Virus genome (UHGV): UHGV-0105281
Source of the DNA: a virus
DNA length: 23,753 nucleotides
Strand: one strand, 5' to 3'
A program made the position numbers and the translations under genes. Position 1 is the stretch's first letter, and each line of letters opens with the position of its first letter. The notes beneath the pieces were generated by a model. It was given only the letters and a program-made list of their open reading frames with translations. It made no database searches and was not told the origin of the DNA. Positions 96-23,753 of this stretch are shown piece by piece.

Positions 96-262
96 TTGAC
101 CAAAATCGAAGTTACGAACAAGAAAGTGTCGAGCGAGCTTTAACGTGCGCTAACTGCGGTCAGAAGCTGCATGTGCTGGAAGTTCACGTGTGTGAGCACT
201 GCTGCGCAGAACTGATGAGCGATCCGAATAGCTCAATGTACGAGGAAGAAGACGATGAATGA
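92..262 (+). CDS. ninF: NinF-like small zinc-ribbon protein
   Basis: CANCGQ...CEHCC four-Cys motif and acidic C-terminus resembling lambda NinF. No in-frame ATG near the 5' end; GTG at 92 overlaps the NinE stop (GTGA coupling). The ORF track uses a GTG at 50, which would overlap NinE by 46 nt. Confidence 0.55.
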
Positions 263-977
263 GTTAATAAATGGCAATGCCATCAAAATGACAAGCATTG
301 AAATCGCTGAGTTGGTGGGTAAGCGTCATGACAATGTGAAACGTACCATCGAAACGCTGGCTAAAAATGGTGTTATCCGGCTTCCTCAAATTGAGGTTTC
401 CGAAAGAATCAATAACTTAGGGTTCAATGTTCAGTACGAGCATTACGTCTTCGAGGGCGAACAAGGTAAGCGAGACAGTATTGTCGTTGTTGCCCAGTTG
501 TCGCCAGAGTTCACCGCTCGTCTTGTTGACCGTTGGCGAGAGCTTGAAGAAACTGCGGTTAATATCCCCAAAACGCTACCAGAAGCATTGCGCCTTGCTG
601 CTGATCTTGCTGAGCAGAAAATGCAACTGGAAAACCAGCTCGCAATTGCCGCACCTAAAGTTGAGTTTGCCGATCGCGTTGGCGAGGCCAGTGGAATTTT
701 GATTGGAAACTTTGCAAAGGTTGTTGGTATTGGTCCGAACAAACTGTTTGCGTGGATGCGCGATCACAAAATCCTTATTGCTTCAGGTTCCCGGCGCAAT
801 GTGCCAATGCAGGAATATATGGATCGCGGCTATTTCGCAGTGAAAGAAACAGCGGTCAACACAAATCACGGAATACAGATATCGTTCACCACAAAAATCA
901 CCGGGCGTGGTCAACAGTGGCTGACCAGAAAGCTGCTCGATAACGGAATGCTGAAAGTAACAGGGGAGGCTGCTTAA
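255..977 (+). CDS. Phage antirepressor-like protein (Rha/pRha-type N-terminal domain plus KilA-C-type C-terminal domain)
   Basis: 240-aa ORF; N-terminal motif TSIEIAELVGKRHDNVKRTIETL is typical of the Rha/AntA family and the C-terminal half resembles KilA-C. GAGGA RBS 8 nt upstream of ATG 255. Confidence 0.75.
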   Translation: MNELINGNAIKMTSIEIAELVGKRHDNVKRTIETLAKNGVIRLPQIEVSERINNLGFNVQYEHYVFEGEQGKRDSIVVVAQLSPEFTARLVDRWRELEETAVNIPKTLPEALRLAADLAEQKMQLENQLAIAAPKVEFADRVGEASGILIGNFAKVVGIGPNKLFAWMRDHKILIASGSRRNVPMQEYMDRGYFAVKETAVNTNHGIQISFTTKITGRGQQWLTRKLLDNGMLKVTGEAA

Positions 978-1626: not shown

Positions 1627-1811
1627 ACGCCACAATTCAAACGATACCAGAGCTTCTTATCCAGACACGAGGCAATCAGACCGAAGTGGCTAGGATGCTT
1701 TCCTGCGCAAGAGGAACAGTGCTCAAGTACAACCGAGACAGCAAAGGCGATCGTCACGTAATAGTTAACGGCGTCCTGATGGTCAAACAGGGAAAGAGGG
1801 GAAGACGATGA
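1623..1811 (+). CDS. ninH: NinH-like protein
   Basis: 62 aa; ...GNQTEVARMLSCARGTVLKYNRD...VIVNGVLMV resembles lambda NinH; sits immediately upstream of the Q-like gene. Confidence 0.65.
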   Translation: MNATIQTIPELLIQTRGNQTEVARMLSCARGTVLKYNRDSKGDRHVIVNGVLMVKQGKRGRR

Positions 1812-2326
1812 GCATAAGAGAACTAAACCTCACCAAAGAACAGCATGAGTGGCTGAATGGCTGGCTTGAACTGTGGGGCGCATGGGTTTATTCAGGTCGT
1901 CTGGAAAAGCGCATGAGCAGCGTAATAGCGAAGTTCATGGAGAGCGTAGAGCCGGGAAGAGTTATGACAAGGCCAATGTGTAATGATGATGATGGAATGT
2001 TGATTTCTCAGGTCGTCGATTCCGTCATGTACATTGACAAGAAAGCCTTTGGCATCCTCCTCAGCTACTACGCTCATGGTTCATCTAAGCGAGCAATTGC
2101 ATCCTACTATCACGCGACTGCAAAGCCACGCAAGATGTGTGGACGTGGTGGCGAGGGATGGAGAAAACCTTCACTGGCAACCTGTAGAAACGAAATTGAC
2201 GACATCCTGAAAGCGTCATTATTTGTTTTGTACCAACCAATGCAAAATGCTTTCAAAATGCGTAAACGTGTTGAGAAAGTTAAGCATGTTGCTGTTAAAA
2301 ACCTTGACATGCAATTAGCCATTTAG
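1808..2326 (+). CDS. Late-gene antiterminator Q (non-lambda Q family)
   Basis: 172-aa Cys-containing ORF directly after ninH and directly before a promoter, terminator, tRNAs and the lysis cassette. Called mainly from position; not lambda Q. Confidence 0.6.
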   Translation: MSIRELNLTKEQHEWLNGWLELWGAWVYSGRLEKRMSSVIAKFMESVEPGRVMTRPMCNDDDGMLISQVVDSVMYIDKKAFGILLSYYAHGSSKRAIASYYHATAKPRKMCGRGGEGWRKPSLATCRNEIDDILKASLFVLYQPMQNAFKMRKRVEKVKHVAVKNLDMQLAI

Positions 2327-2333
2327 CCATAAT
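2304..2333 (+). promoter_or_regulatory. PR'-like late promoter (TTGACA, 18-bp spacer, CATAAT) at the 3' end of the Q gene
   Basis: Consensus -35 TTGACA at 2304-2309 and -10 CATAAT at 2328-2333, directly read from the sequence. Confidence 0.4.
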
Positions 2334-2343
2334 TAGAGGGTAA

Positions 2344-2387
2344 GCTGCCGTTAGTGACTCTTAAGTTGCAACGGTGGCTTTTTTTAT
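2344..2387 (+). terminator. tR'-like intrinsic terminator just downstream of the late promoter
   Basis: Inverted repeat gctgccgtt...aacggtggc followed by a T-run (ttttttta). Confidence 0.5.
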
Positions 2388-2389
2388 TT

Positions 2390-2464
2390 GGGTCAGTCGT
2401 ATAAAGGTCATTACGGAAGGCTGTTAACCTTCTTATCGTGGTTCGAGTCCACGCTGTCCCGCCA
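2390..2464 (+). tRNA. tRNA-Asn(GUU)-like, with a degenerate D-arm
   Basis: Perfect anticodon arm gaagg-ctGTTaa-ccttc, perfect T-arm cgtgg-ttcgagt-ccacg, 7-bp acceptor stem with one T-T mismatch, encoded CCA; the D-arm is only about 3 bp. Confidence 0.5.
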
Positions 2465-2469
2465 AATAT

Positions 2470-2545
2470 GCTGGTTTAGCTCCAATGGTAGAGCAGTCGC
2501 CTTGTAAGCGAATGGGTAGCGGTTCAAGTCCGTTAACCAGCACCA
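2470..2545 (+). tRNA. tRNA-Thr(UGU)
   Basis: Hand-folded cloverleaf: acceptor gctggtt/aaccagc, D-arm gctc-caatggta-gagc, anticodon loop cTTGTAa, T-arm agcgg-ttcaagt-ccgtt, encoded CCA. Confidence 0.75.
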
Positions 2546-2789
2546 TAACTGAGCCGTAGCCACTGGCTATCCTGAATTCATCAGTGATAGTTACGCTGCG
2601 GCCTTCTACACATGACCTTCGTGAAAGCGGGTGGCATGAGGTTGCGCTAACAACCTCCTGCCGTTTTGCCCGTGCATATCGGTCACGAACAAATCTGATT
2701 ACTAAACACAGTAGCCTGGATTTGTTCTATCAGTAATCGACCTTATTCCTAATTAAATAGAGCAAATCCCCTCAATGAAGGGGTAGAGC

Positions 2790-2993
2790 ATGTACCGTAT
2801 GGACAAAATCAGAGAATGGTTCAGTTACAGCTTCGGAGGACTGACTGCGATGGGTGGCATTCTCTCCCTGAATGACTGGGCTGTCATCATTGGTATTCTT
2901 TGTACTGTCGGCACATTTGGCATCAACTGGTACTACAAGCGCAAAGAGCGCGAGGACAGATTGAATGGCAATGTCACCGGCACTACGAAATAG
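2790..2993 (+). CDS. Class II holin/pinholin (phage 21 S-like) with dual-start motif
   Basis: 67 aa; N-terminus MYRMDKI gives two starts (Met1, Met4) with an intervening Arg; two hydrophobic TM segments and a charged C-terminus; lies immediately upstream of a SAR endolysin. Confidence 0.8.
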
Positions 2994-3468
2994 CGTAATA
3001 GCGGCGATAAGTGGCGGGGCTATTGCTATAGCATCTGTGTTAATCACTGGACCAAGTGGTAACGATGGCCTGGAAGGTGTCAGCTACATACCATACAAAG
3101 ATATTGTTGGTGTATGGACTGTATGCCACGGACACACCGGAAAAGACATCATGCTCGGTAAAACGTATACCAAAGCAGAATGCAAAGCCCTCCTGAATAA
3201 AGACCTTGCCACGGTCGCCAGACAAATTAACCCGTACATCAAAGTCGATATACCGGAAACAATGCGCGGCGCTCTTTACTCATTCGTTTACAACGTGGGT
3301 GCTGGCAATTTCAGAACATCGACGCTTCTTCGCAAAATAAACCAGGGCGATATCAAAGGCGCATGTGATCAGCTACGTCGCTGGACATATGCTGGCGGTA
3401 AGCAATGGAAAGGTCTCATGACTCGTCGTGAGATTGAGCGTGAAGTCTGTTTGTGGGGGAAACAATGA
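2965..3468 (+). CDS. SAR endolysin (T4-type lysozyme with N-terminal signal-anchor-release domain, phage 21 R-like)
   Basis: N-terminal Gly/Ala-rich weakly hydrophobic segment ([16 protein letters not shown]) followed by a lysozyme-like domain; near-identical to my recollection of phage 21 R. Alternative start at ATG 2971. Confidence 0.9.
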
Positions 3469-3932
3469 GCAGAGTAACCGCGATTATCTCCGCTCTGGTT
3501 ATCTGCATCATCGTCTGTCTGTCATGGGCTGTTAATCATTACCGTGATAACGCCATCGCCTACAAAGAACAGCGTGATAAAAAAGTCAGTGAGCTGAAGC
3601 AGGCGACCGCCACCATTACTGACATGCAGCAACGCCAGCGTGCTGCTGATGTACTCGATGCAAAATACACGAAGGAGTTAGCTGATGCGAAAGCTGAAAA
3701 TGATGCTCTTCTGCGGAAGCTTGATAATGGTGGCAGGGTGCTCGTCAAAGGAAAATGCCCTGTGCCATCCTCTGCCGAAACCTCCAGCGCCTCCGGCATG
3801 GGCAATGATGCCACCGTCGAACTCTCTCCAGTTGCTGGACGAAACGTTCTCGGTATCCGGGACGGAATTATCCGCGACCAAACAGCATTGAGAACGCTTC
3901 AGGAATACATCAGGACGCAATGCCTTCGATGA
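3465..3932 (+). CDS. Rz i-spanin
   Basis: N-terminal TM segment followed by a charged coiled-coil region; ATG 3465 overlaps the endolysin stop (ATGA). The ORF track start at 3453 is a GTG. Confidence 0.85.
3685..3891 (+). CDS. Rz1 o-spanin lipoprotein, embedded in the +1 frame of Rz
   Basis: [19 protein letters not shown] signal peptide with lipobox and a Pro-rich mature region ([11 protein letters not shown]); AGGAG RBS 7 nt upstream. Confidence 0.8.
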
Positions 3933-4106: not shown

Positions 4107-4133
4107 AGCCTCGCATTTGCGGGGCTTTTTTAT
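4107..4133 (+). terminator. Rho-independent terminator downstream of the lysis cassette
   Basis: agcctcgc-attt-gcggggct hairpin followed by ttttttat. Confidence 0.6.
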
Positions 4134-4275
4134 ATCTGAATTTCACAGCGCATCTCACGCGCATATTAACGAGAGCCTTTCAGTAAGCGAGCCTGAGAAA
4201 TGCCGTTATAGGTGGCGACCTCTCTCGGGCGGCTTTTCTGTGAGACAGGCTCACTTTCTAAAAGGTAAAGACGCT

Positions 4276-4794
4276 ATGAATCATCAATTGGCTAATCTCG
4301 ATTTCCGGGACATGGTGGTTGTTTCTGGTGATCGCGTGATCACAACCTCCCGCAAGGTAGCAGCTTACTTCGACAAGCAGCATCACCACATCATTCAGAA
4401 AATCGAAAAGCTAGACTGTTCGGATGAATTTCTAACCAGCAACTTTTCGCGGGTTACCTATGAACACAAGGGTAATCAGTATGTTGAATATGAAATTTCC
4501 AAAGACGGTGCGATGTACATCATCATGTCGTTTACCGGCAAAAAAGCTGCCGCCATCAAAGAGGCGTTTATCAAAGCATTTAATTGGATGCGTGACAGGC
4601 TGATGGAGATGGCTCACTCATACCAAAGAGAGCACAACGAGTTAATGCTGGAGTTCATGAAGGAAAAGGATGTTGCCAGTATGTCAGGACGCTTGCTGAA
4701 CCGCTGGGGCAGGATCAAAAAACCGCAACTCATAGCAAGAATCGAAAGGCTTGAGCAGCAGGCGCAAATATCGATCCCCGGACTGCCAAAGTGA
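4276..4794 (+). CDS. rha: Rha-family phage regulatory protein
   Basis: MNHQLANLDFRDMVVVSGDRVITTSRKVAAYFDKQHHHIIQKIEKL is a typical pRha N-terminal domain. The ORF-track start at 4117 lies inside the upstream terminator, so ATG 4276 is preferred. Confidence 0.75.
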   Translation: MNHQLANLDFRDMVVVSGDRVITTSRKVAAYFDKQHHHIIQKIEKLDCSDEFLTSNFSRVTYEHKGNQYVEYEISKDGAMYIIMSFTGKKAAAIKEAFIKAFNWMRDRLMEMAHSYQREHNELMLEFMKEKDVASMSGRLLNRWGRIKKPQLIARIERLEQQAQISIPGLPK

Positions 4795-5449: not shown

Positions 5450-5552
5450 TTATTACAAAAGCCATTCCCTACAGAGTGGCTTTGATAATGGCTTATACCC
5501 TACACGGGATAACTTAACTGATATCCCTTTTAACGGATAAACGGAGCCAACA

Positions 5553-5795
5553 ATGGCAGAGATTATTCCCATGACTGAAGAACAGAAATTCCAGTTAGAG
5601 ATTTACAAACTGGTCATGAACCAGAACGCAGCCGCAGAAGAAGCATTTCAGTTCATTGGCACTGACGAGCTGAAGCTTGAGCTATTCAAAATTCACTTCC
5701 AGTCAGGCGGCGCTAATTCAGATATCACGACCCGCACTATCGAAGCGGTGCGTAAATCGAAGGAAGCGTTAGACCTGTTCACCACCGGAGCATGA
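5553..5795 (+). CDS. Hypothetical small acidic protein
   Basis: 80-aa ORF with a GGAG RBS and good coding periodicity; no family recognised. Confidence 0.5.
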   Translation: MAEIIPMTEEQKFQLEIYKLVMNQNAAAEEAFQFIGTDELKLELFKIHFQSGGANSDITTRTIEAVRKSKEALDLFTTGA

Positions 5796-23437: not shown

Positions 23438-23703
23438 GGGTGTCATTGCTTGATCGTTCTTTACAATTTTTGTCTGGCGCAATCATTGTGGTTTGCTTGC
23501 TTGTGATTTTTACAGCGCTAATCAATATGTATCAATCAGGGGAACGATTGACAAAGACGATAGAGGAAAAGAAATCAGTCTCAAATTACGAAGTATCACA
23601 TGCACATAACGATTTAGTAGAAAGCCTTGACCGTATTAACAAGAGGCTTGACGAGACAAATATGCTACTTAAGCAAATTCAAAATGAAGTGGAAAAACGT
23701 TGA
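23434..23703 (+). CDS. Membrane-anchored coiled-coil protein (89 aa) in the position ant occupies in P22
   Basis: ATGA overlap with the arc stop; N-terminal TM helix (FLSGAIIVVCLLVIFTALINMY) and a charged helical C-terminus. Confidence 0.55.
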   Translation: MRVSLLDRSLQFLSGAIIVVCLLVIFTALINMYQSGERLTKTIEEKKSVSNYEVSHAHNDLVESLDRINKRLDETNMLLKQIQNEVEKR

Positions 23704-23753
23704 AGCCCCAACTGCTGGAACAGTCAGGGCTTCGGTATCAACAAATCGTCTTA

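Follow-up and report, generated by a model that had tools for sequence, protein, structure and literature searches.

Two tRNA genes placed between the gene of the late antiterminator Q and the lysis cassette of a phage genome, one of them with an irregular cloverleaf, raise the question of whether both are functional and what a phage would gain from carrying just this pair. The window studied here is the whole stretch of 23,753 nucleotides from the virus genome UHGV-0105281, representing an E. coli phage or prophage of the P22-like type (Lederbergvirus) with best matches to the phages E212, JEP4 and CUS-3. The explanation that, in our opinion, is most probably correct sees both genes as functional phage tRNAs of the cassette typical of phages 21 and Sf6, with the tRNA-Thr acting as a resistant substitute for the host tRNA-ThrU and the tRNA-Asn most likely as a spare tRNA.

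Across the 23.7-kb window, exactly two tRNA genes were recognised by ARAGORN, tRNA-Asn(gtt) and tRNA-Thr(tgt), both on the plus strand. Since their scores with the Rfam family RF00005—55.3 bits (E = 1.3e-9) and 61.5 bits (E = 2.6e-11), respectively—can be compared with a gathering score of 29, both calls are far above chance. The preliminary description, made from the sequence, had already placed an Asn(GUU) gene and a Thr(UGU) gene between Q and the lysis cassette; the agreement of the two programs on both genes, the isotypes called over the whole window and the genomic context (Table 1) all bear this out.

Table 1 Features of the late-operon region of the window (positions of the whole stretch)
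Feature	Position	Strand	Description and evidence
Late antiterminator gene of the Q type, as in phages 21 and Sf6	1808..2326	+	Pfam PF06530 Phage_antitermQ, E = 1.1e-25
Late promoter pR'	2304..2333	+	-35 TTGACA 2304-2309, -10 CATAAT 2328-2333; promoter scan, 11/12 match
Intrinsic terminator tR', ending the short late leader RNA	2342..2389	+	Hairpin and U-run
tRNA-Asn(GUU)	2390..2464	+	75 nt, CCA encoded; ARAGORN, Rfam 55.3 bits, cloverleaf, covariation
tRNA-tRNA spacer	2465..2469	+	5 nt, AATAT; alignment
tRNA-Thr(UGU)	2470..2545	+	76 nt, CCA encoded; ARAGORN, Rfam 61.5 bits
Lambda-like untranslated late leader	2549..2789	+	~97% identical to the lambda sequence preceding S
Holin	2790-2993	+	Lysis cassette (2790..3932; Pfam PF16080, PF00959 and PF03245 across the cassette, ORF list)
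Endolysin (lysozyme)	2965-3468	+	Lysis cassette; Pfam, ORF list
Rz spanin	3453-3932	+	Lysis cassette; Pfam, ORF list
Rz1-like ORF	3685-3891	+	Embedded in Rz; ORF list

With regard to the structure, the tRNA-Asn has a 7-bp acceptor stem with a single mismatch, U4·U69, a D stem of three Watson-Crick pairs plus U13·U22, and perfect anticodon and T stems of 5 bp each, exactly as had been noticed beforehand (a D stem of about 3 bp, an acceptor mismatch and perfect anticodon and T arms). Its variable loop consists of 4 nt, its discriminator is G73 and its anticodon stem reads GAAGG/CCUUC, with G27-C43 paired and with UAACCU at positions 36-41; the core nucleotides U8, A14, G18G19, U33, T54-Psi55-C56 and A58 are all present. 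The tRNA-Thr, on the other hand, had been taken to fold canonically, but the fold is not fully canonical: the uppermost pair of the anticodon stem is a G27·A43 mismatch, and a cytosine stands at position 14 in place of the near-universal A14. Position 14 is C in 17 and U in 2 of the 19 distinct variants, A being found in none of them. Positions 28-30 of this tRNA are UCG, positions 40-42 are CGA, positions 36-41 are UAAGCG, and its acceptor end carries A73, G1-C72 and C2-G71. The identity set of the E. coli AsnRS comprises G34, U35 and U36 together with the discriminator G73, and that of the ThrRS includes G1-C72, C2-G71, G35 and U36; all these elements are intact in the window tRNA-Asn (anticodon GUU, G73) and tRNA-Thr, respectively.

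Concerning the genomic context, the Q gene is co-linear with gene 59 of Sf6, annotated as 'similar to phage 21 Q'. The promoter pR' overlapping its 3' end, with the arrangement TTGACA-18-CATAAT, is the sole sigma-70-like promoter found on the plus strand, and the promoter scan yielded no promoter of the tRNAs' own besides it. The direct repeats ATTAGCCA/TTTAGCCA at 2314-2329, occupying the place of the Q-binding element (QBE) of phage 21, probably represent the QBE of the window, and transcription is likely to start near position 2340. The position of pR' agrees with what is annotated in both phage 21 and Sf6 as pR', as QBE and as the start site; in these two phages the matching elements bear the names pR', QBE/qut and tR'. 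The window tR', identical to the annotated tR' of the two phages, is a strong hairpin at 2342-2380 (dG -20.2 kcal/mol, z -4.79) with U7 behind it and stops 3 nt short of the tRNA-Asn. Because the tRNA genes thus lie directly 3' of tR', RNA polymerase should depend on Q antitermination, or on read-through, to reach them. Both tRNAs would then make up the 5' portion of the late transcript arising by Q antitermination, which also covers the lysis and virion genes, and would be cut out of it by the host RNase P and 3'-trimming enzymes, with the CCA end already encoded. Only 3 nt past the CCA of the tRNA-Thr there is a mosaic junction with lambda, the sequence before it being unrelated to lambda; at the corresponding place, lambda contains unrelated DNA with neither a tRNA nor a tRNA remnant. 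The tRNA pair is part of an exchangeable module consisting of Q of the phage 21 type, pR' and tR'. At the other end of the window, the P22 immI sar RNA is truncated by the right border.

The pair itself is an already known cassette, ordinary for this group of phages, annotated in phage 21, Sf6 (as 'similar to phage 21'), BTP1, SPN9CC, Oslo and SfI, with the annotation extending to dozens of P22-like and lambdoid phages and prophages. In the alignment, neither gene differs in a single base from its counterpart in phages 21 and Sf6. The genes of HK446 are likewise the same, this phage exhibiting 100% identity across 2390-2545, and the tRNA-Asn gene is base-identical also in phage L. It should be pointed out that the RefSeq record of HK446 is without annotation of these tRNAs. 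The order of the genes, their 5-nt spacing and their place after tR' and before the holin are shared by the window with phages 21, Sf6, SfI, HK446, BTP1 and SPN9CC, whereas the spacer of phages 21, Sf6 and L differs in one base (AACAT versus AATAT in the window), the Q gene and QBE of the window are of the Sf6-like and not the 21-like allele, and the downstream leader and lysis genes differ from those of the phage 21/Sf6-type relatives as a consequence of mosaicism. Of 5426 complete E. coli genomes, 369 carry the pair; IMG/VR adds more than 100 loci, and the cassette occurs also in Shimwellia, E. albertii and Phytobacter. One and the same tRNA-Asn sequence recurs in 78-85 of the sampled loci, the gene being spread over phages of Escherichia, Shigella, Salmonella, Shimwellia and Klebsiella.

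In total, 131 cassette loci were collected and their distinct variants aligned (15 for tRNA-Asn, 19 for tRNA-Thr). The cassettes are of several types: Asn-Thr (87 loci), Asn-Gly(UCC) (7 loci), Asn-Phe-Thr, the latter optionally extended by Arg(UCU) or by Arg(UCU) and Gly, and Asn-Thr-Arg. The tRNA-Asn is the constant member in every type, its partner—Thr, Gly, Phe or Arg—being variable. The Gly(UCC) partner is the host glyT with 4-6 changes, A38G always among them, and a Lys(UUU) partner, sought in the same 131 cassettes, was present in none.

The irregular cloverleaf of the tRNA-Asn had led to the suggestion that the gene may be decaying. A decaying or non-functional relic, carried beside a functional Thr gene, could indeed be seen in the U4·U69 acceptor mismatch, in the D stem with only three Watson-Crick pairs and in the 4-nt variable loop, as well as in a few IMG/VR copies with lesions (U33A, a 1-nt deletion and an Asn-Gly chimera); the authors describing SfI also called the significance of the Asn gene 'not clear' (PMC3636060). 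The comparison of the variants nevertheless makes this reading very improbable. Among the 15 distinct tRNA-Asn sequences, compensatory exchange of both partners is seen at 6:67, 7:66 and 28:42; covariation scored 0.137 as compared with 0.060 after shuffling (none of 500 shuffles reaching the observed value), and the slid-partner controls are 32-52% paired versus 90% observed. The position 4:69 is unpaired in 14 of the 15 variants (U·U in 12, U·C in 2 and U·G in 1). The pair U13·U22 is invariant, and it should be noted in this regard that the first collection of tRNA-Asn loci used a D-arm pattern, which is circular for the invariance of that arm, so that the loci were recollected with an anticodon/T-arm pattern; in this independent collection U13·U22 is invariant as well, and loop base 20a alone varies freely in the D-arm. 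The matching D-arm, i.e. three pairs and U13·U22, is found in the host glyT, an essential tRNA. Judging from the aligned variants, the odd positions U4·U69 and U13·U22 are fixed features and not damage. The perfect anticodon and T arms, the intact GUU, G73 and encoded CCA, the Rfam score of 55 bits, the base-identical relatives across the phages of five genera and the constancy of the Asn gene in all cassette types with varying partners speak against a relic, too, and the suggestion of decay has been abandoned here. The 19 distinct tRNA-Thr sequences likewise exhibit double changes, at 3:70, 5:68 and 6:67; their anticodon arm is nearly invariant, with G27·A43 in 19 of the 19.

Late-leader tRNAs of lambdoid phages are also known from 933W and other Stx phages, where ileZ-argN-argO lie between Q and the stx/lysis genes; these are rare-codon Ile and Arg isoacceptors, and their classic reading is codon supply. 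A pure supply model of the present pair would have the two tRNAs do no more than enlarge what the host offers for codons favoured by the phage and so speed the synthesis of late proteins, and the preliminary description had linked them to codon usage of the late genes in a similar way. Codon usage was compared between the ORFs on the plus strand of the window and a K-12 sample of 42 annotated genes, two mis-called minus-strand ORFs of the nin region having been left out. The codon ACA reaches 13.4 per 1000 in the genes following the tRNAs versus 5.9 in the K-12 sample (2.3-fold; p = 1.5e-7), representing 25% versus 11% of the Thr codons, and the host thrU is a single-copy gene and the sole decoder of ACA. 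The genes preceding the tRNAs, albeit a small sample of 482 codons, contain 14.5 ACA per 1000, and the enrichment is therefore not specific to late genes; it is accompanied by a lower GC3 (0.50 versus 0.58 in the K-12 sample). For asparagine, the total number of codons is higher in the phage (46.5 versus 34.2 per 1000), and the coat gene of phage L uses AAC in 24 of its 25 Asn codons, but no AAC/AAU bias exists in the window, the AAC fraction being 0.56 in both the phage and the K-12 sample. Moreover, E. coli K-12 possesses four Asn(GUU) genes—asnT, asnU, asnV and asnW. Of the expected codon compensation, the ACA enrichment has thus been retained, while neither its late-gene specificity nor an Asn codon bias could be seen. 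The same pattern has been reported for SfI, with ACA at 17.3 versus 7.1, no Asn codon bias and an unclear significance of the Asn gene (PMC3636060). In addition, a pure supply role leaves without explanation the frozen G27·A43 and anticodon arm of the tRNA-Thr beside its drifting acceptor stem, as well as the fact that an extra host tRNA-ThrU gives no protection against the nuclease OLD, whereas the phage tRNA does. Codon supply can be at most part of the story, for the tRNA-Thr only, and as the whole explanation it is considered rather unlikely.

The protection just mentioned concerns P2-OLD, a Toprim tRNase and the effector of P2-lambda interference, which amputates the anticodon arm of the host tRNA-ThrU(UGU) by cutting after the C of each paired CNG triplet (positions 28-30 and 40-42); Thr(UGU) tRNAs from phages resist the cleavage and thereby rescue the cells (Govande et al., NAR 2025, PMC12445682). 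Specifically, the tRNA-Thr21 of phage 21 protects cells from P2-OLD and is cleavage-resistant in vitro, and in ThrU a change of the CNG alone is not protective, stem shortening being needed as well (PMC12445682). In an independent preprint of 2026, the Thr(UGU) of HK446 enables HK97, HK542 and Bas34, all sensitive to OLD, to plate again at near wild-type levels, an extra host Thr(UGU) has no effect on OLD-sensitive phages, and the natural escape of HK446 itself from OLD has been assigned to the protein Oad2 and not to the tRNA (10.64898/2026.07.10.737580). As the host ThrU fails where the phage tRNA rescues, the differences between their sequences matter. The host thrU has A27-CUG-A31/U39-CAG-U43, whereas the window tRNA-Thr has G27-UCG-C31/G39-CGA-A43 with G27·A43 unpaired, and thus bears the sequence marks of a P2-OLD-resistant Thr(UGU): the UGU anticodon, the altered paired CNG and the unpaired 27:43. 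Both the tRNA-Thr21 and the HK446 Thr(UGU) are identical in sequence to the window tRNA-Thr, including the stem shortened by G27·A43, and the loss of the CNG motif by C28U/G42A described for the former is seen here, too; they differ in having been tested from a plasmid, whereas the window gene is located in the late operon of a P22-like phage.

Owing to these experiments performed elsewhere on an identical sequence, the role of a P2-OLD-resistant replacement tRNA is better supported for the window tRNA-Thr than codon compensation, and its function as a decoder of the Thr codon ACA is implied by the same rescue experiments. In the cell, it would be a cleavage-resistant stand-in for the single-copy host tRNA-ThrU, the mismatch G27·A43 and the triplets UCG/CGA instead of CUG/CAG being the features that the authors report for the resistant tRNA of phage 21. 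With the resistant tRNA persisting, the ACA codons enriched 2.3-fold in the phage could still be read. Two points limit this explanation: the OLD rescue experiments used plasmid-expressed tRNAs, and the ACA enrichment is also compatible with a plain supply role of the tRNA-Thr. P2 Old, known as the effector in the classic interference of P2 with lambda, is defeated by a tRNA identical to the one in the window, and the apparent 'defects' of phage tRNAs, such as G27·A43, can be the functional part. The host Thr(UGU) is also a prime target of the PARIS nuclease AriB, which cleaves it at U36AAUC|A41, U39 and U16 having been identified as AriB determinants in tRNA-Lys (Belukhina et al., PMC12409363). 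The window tRNA-Thr contains UAAGCG in place of the AriB site and A16.

For the tRNA-Asn, a role as a spare tRNA is plausible from its sequence; it would most likely be a working spare for the host tRNA-Asn in the same way as the tRNA-Thr is for ThrU. AriB cleaves the host Asn(GUU) at UAAUC|C as a secondary but biologically relevant target (PMC12409363), and P2-OLD also cuts it, though more slowly. At positions 36-41, the window tRNA-Asn has UAACCU, along with A16, versus UAAUCC and U16 in the host, C39 and U41 being invariant in 15 of the 15 variants. The paired CNG triplets CGG/CCG of the host asnT are replaced with AAG/CUU, the motif being lost on both strands. Of the two factors marking resistance to OLD, the window tRNA-Asn exhibits the altered CNG, but its anticodon stem is fully paired, and the variant from a Klebsiella phage has a paired CNG again (CAG/CUG).

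A more specific proposal, regarded here as tentative and rather short of an even chance, is that the tRNA-Asn may complete, beside the tRNA-Thr, a counter-defence cassette of two tRNAs directed against Toprim nucleases of the anticodon stem, the PARIS AriB and the P2 OLD. It is consistent with Asn(GUU) and Thr(UGU) being two of the three main AriB targets, with the loss of the AriB site (C39, U41), of U16 and of both CNG triplets from the phage tRNA-Asn, and with the pairing of the tRNA-Asn, in other cassettes, with the host-derived Gly(UCC) carrying A38G, Gly(UCC) ranking among the preferred OLD targets (10.64898/2026.07.10.737580). On the opposite side, the resistance determinants have been mapped on tRNA-Lys and tRNA-ThrU and not on tRNA-Asn, ThrU needed both factors while the stem of the window tRNA-Asn is unshortened, the Klebsiella variant regains CAG/CUG, and the escape of HK446 from OLD has been assigned to Oad2. 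Since Lys(UUU), the main target of AriB, is missing from all 131 cassettes, the cassette alone should not neutralise PARIS. Should the proposal be true, the place held by tRNA genes in the late leader of lambdoid and P22-like phages would represent a modular locus against tRNases, and the 'degenerate' features of the tRNA-Asn—U4·U69, U13·U22 and A16—could serve the evasion of nucleases. The Asn partner is in any case a worthwhile lead, as it fits the list of AriB targets and has been overlooked in the current papers on HK446, a phage stated to encode a single tRNA, the Asn gene not being mentioned (10.64898/2026.07.10.737580).

The preprint authors have suggested, for HK446, that a prophage tRNA may replace a host tRNA gene disrupted by integration (10.64898/2026.07.10.737580), and many P22-like and lambdoid phages do integrate into tRNA genes, e.g. 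thrW and argU. The location of the window genes, behind tR' and adjoining the lysis genes instead of the int/att end, is at odds with such a compensation; upon integration at thrW, the host gene is restored by the copy carried on attP, the anticodons UGU and GUU differ from those of the usual att targets (CGU in thrW, UCU in argU), and the cassette travels with the Q module among phages with different integrases. All this makes a role connected with lysogeny scarcely credible for the present pair.

With both tRNAs taken as functional members of a travelling cassette, two further systems deserve comparison. A tandem of a tRNA-Asn(GUU) with a tRNA-Thr(UGU), in the same order and adjacent with a 2-nt spacer, is carried also by P1, P7 and D6, and its presence in P1 speaks for the spare-tRNA role. 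The P1 tRNA-Thr is ~80% identical to that of the window, with G39 in both, but CUG/CAG persists in it as a paired CNG, and its stem has the full 5 bp; the P1 tRNA-Asn is unrelated in sequence to the window tRNA-Asn and retains UAAUCA, and the P1 pair follows dmt and not a late leader. The tRNAs of T5 resemble the window pair in including Asn and Thr isoacceptors with the AriB site U36AAUC|N41 altered, although their sequences are unrelated, they belong to a set of ~24 genes in a virulent phage as opposed to two in a temperate one, and a Lys(UUU) partner is absent from all 131 cassettes. The stretch corresponding to the AriB site reads UAAGCA in the T5 tRNA-Thr and UAAGUU in the T5 tRNA-Asn, versus UAAGCG and UAACCU, respectively, in the window.

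The tRNA-Thr(UGU) of the window carries C at position 14 (window 2483), where A14, the partner of U8 in the U8-A14 tertiary pair, is almost universal in tRNAs. Among 19 distinct variants of this tRNA, position 14 is occupied by C in 17 and by U in two, A being found in none of the 19. The adjoining Levitt pair 15:48 covaries, being A15:U48 in the phage tRNA-Thr and G15:C48 in that of the host. In models of AriB, the second subunit touches this portion of the tRNA D-loop (U16-U17).

Concerning the distribution of the cassette, phage HK446 matches both window tRNA genes at 100% (NC_019714.1 35097-35252), its RefSeq record has no tRNA annotation beneath this match, and only a single tRNA has been attributed to the phage (10.64898/2026.07.10.737580); the tRNA-Asn(GUU) gene has therefore been overlooked there. 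The tandem Asn(GUU)-Thr(UGU) is present also in phage P1, so the isoacceptor pair recurs in an unrelated temperate phage; the P1 tRNA-Thr is ~80% identical to that of the window, whereas the P1 tRNA-Asn is unrelated to its window counterpart and retains the AriB-type site UAAUCA.

In Escherichia albertii and six IMG/VR loci, the same tRNA-Asn gene is paired instead with a tRNA-Gly(UCC) that differs from the host glyT by only 4-6 changes. These include, in every cassette tRNA-Gly(UCC), A38G adjoining the anticodon stem and, in two variants, also G39U; Gly(UCC) has been reported among the preferred targets of P2-OLD (10.64898/2026.07.10.737580). Two IMG/VR loci harbour an Asn-Gly(UCC) chimeric gene, in which the 5' two-thirds of tRNA-Asn are joined to the 3' end of tRNA-Gly(UCC) inside the common GGTTCGA T-loop and the acceptor strands are unable to pair; it probably arose by a recombination-made deletion between neighbouring tRNAs. 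The second cassette gene of phage L/ST64T retains the Thr-type acceptor and T arms, with a remodelled anticodon arm; it was not called by ARAGORN and scored 42 bits with Rfam, its anticodon loop being shortened. It is a truly aberrant derivative of the tRNA-Thr gene.

Features of the window and of the comparison sequences
Feature	Sequence	Position	Strand	Details
sar antisense RNA	window	23698-23753	-	RF00262, 51.2 bits; incomplete at window end
Rha-domain gene	window	255-977	+	Rha+KilAC/ANT
Rha-domain gene	window	4117-4794	+	Rha+ORF11CD3
Second cassette gene	L003 (phage L/ST64T)	681-752		72 nt; annotated tRNA-Leu(UAA)
Tandem tRNA-Asn(GUU)-tRNA-Thr(UGU)	L005 (phage P1)	1425-1578		2-nt spacer
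Asn-Gly(UCC) cassette	L013 (E. albertii)	5473-5706

Upstream of the tRNAs, the direct repeats ATTAGCCA/TTTAGCCA are located between the -35 and -10 of the late promoter pR' (window 2314-2329), exactly at the position of the Q-binding element of phage 21 (ATTGAGCA/AATGAGCA). The sequence suggests that a Q of different DNA specificity (Sf6/L type) would act at the window pR' through this putative binding element.

Downstream (window 2546-2789), the mosaic boundary with lambda is reached 3 nt past the CCA of tRNA-Thr, the leader from ~2549 to the holin start being ~97% identical to the lambda leader upstream of S. Despite this lambda-like leader, the holin belongs to a family different from that of lambda, the HP1-type (PF16080). 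Of the remaining features, the sar RNA is a marker of the P22-type immI (ant) region, and the two Rha-domain genes, one inside the nin region and the other directly past the lysis cassette, are predicted moron-like regulators or antirepressors.
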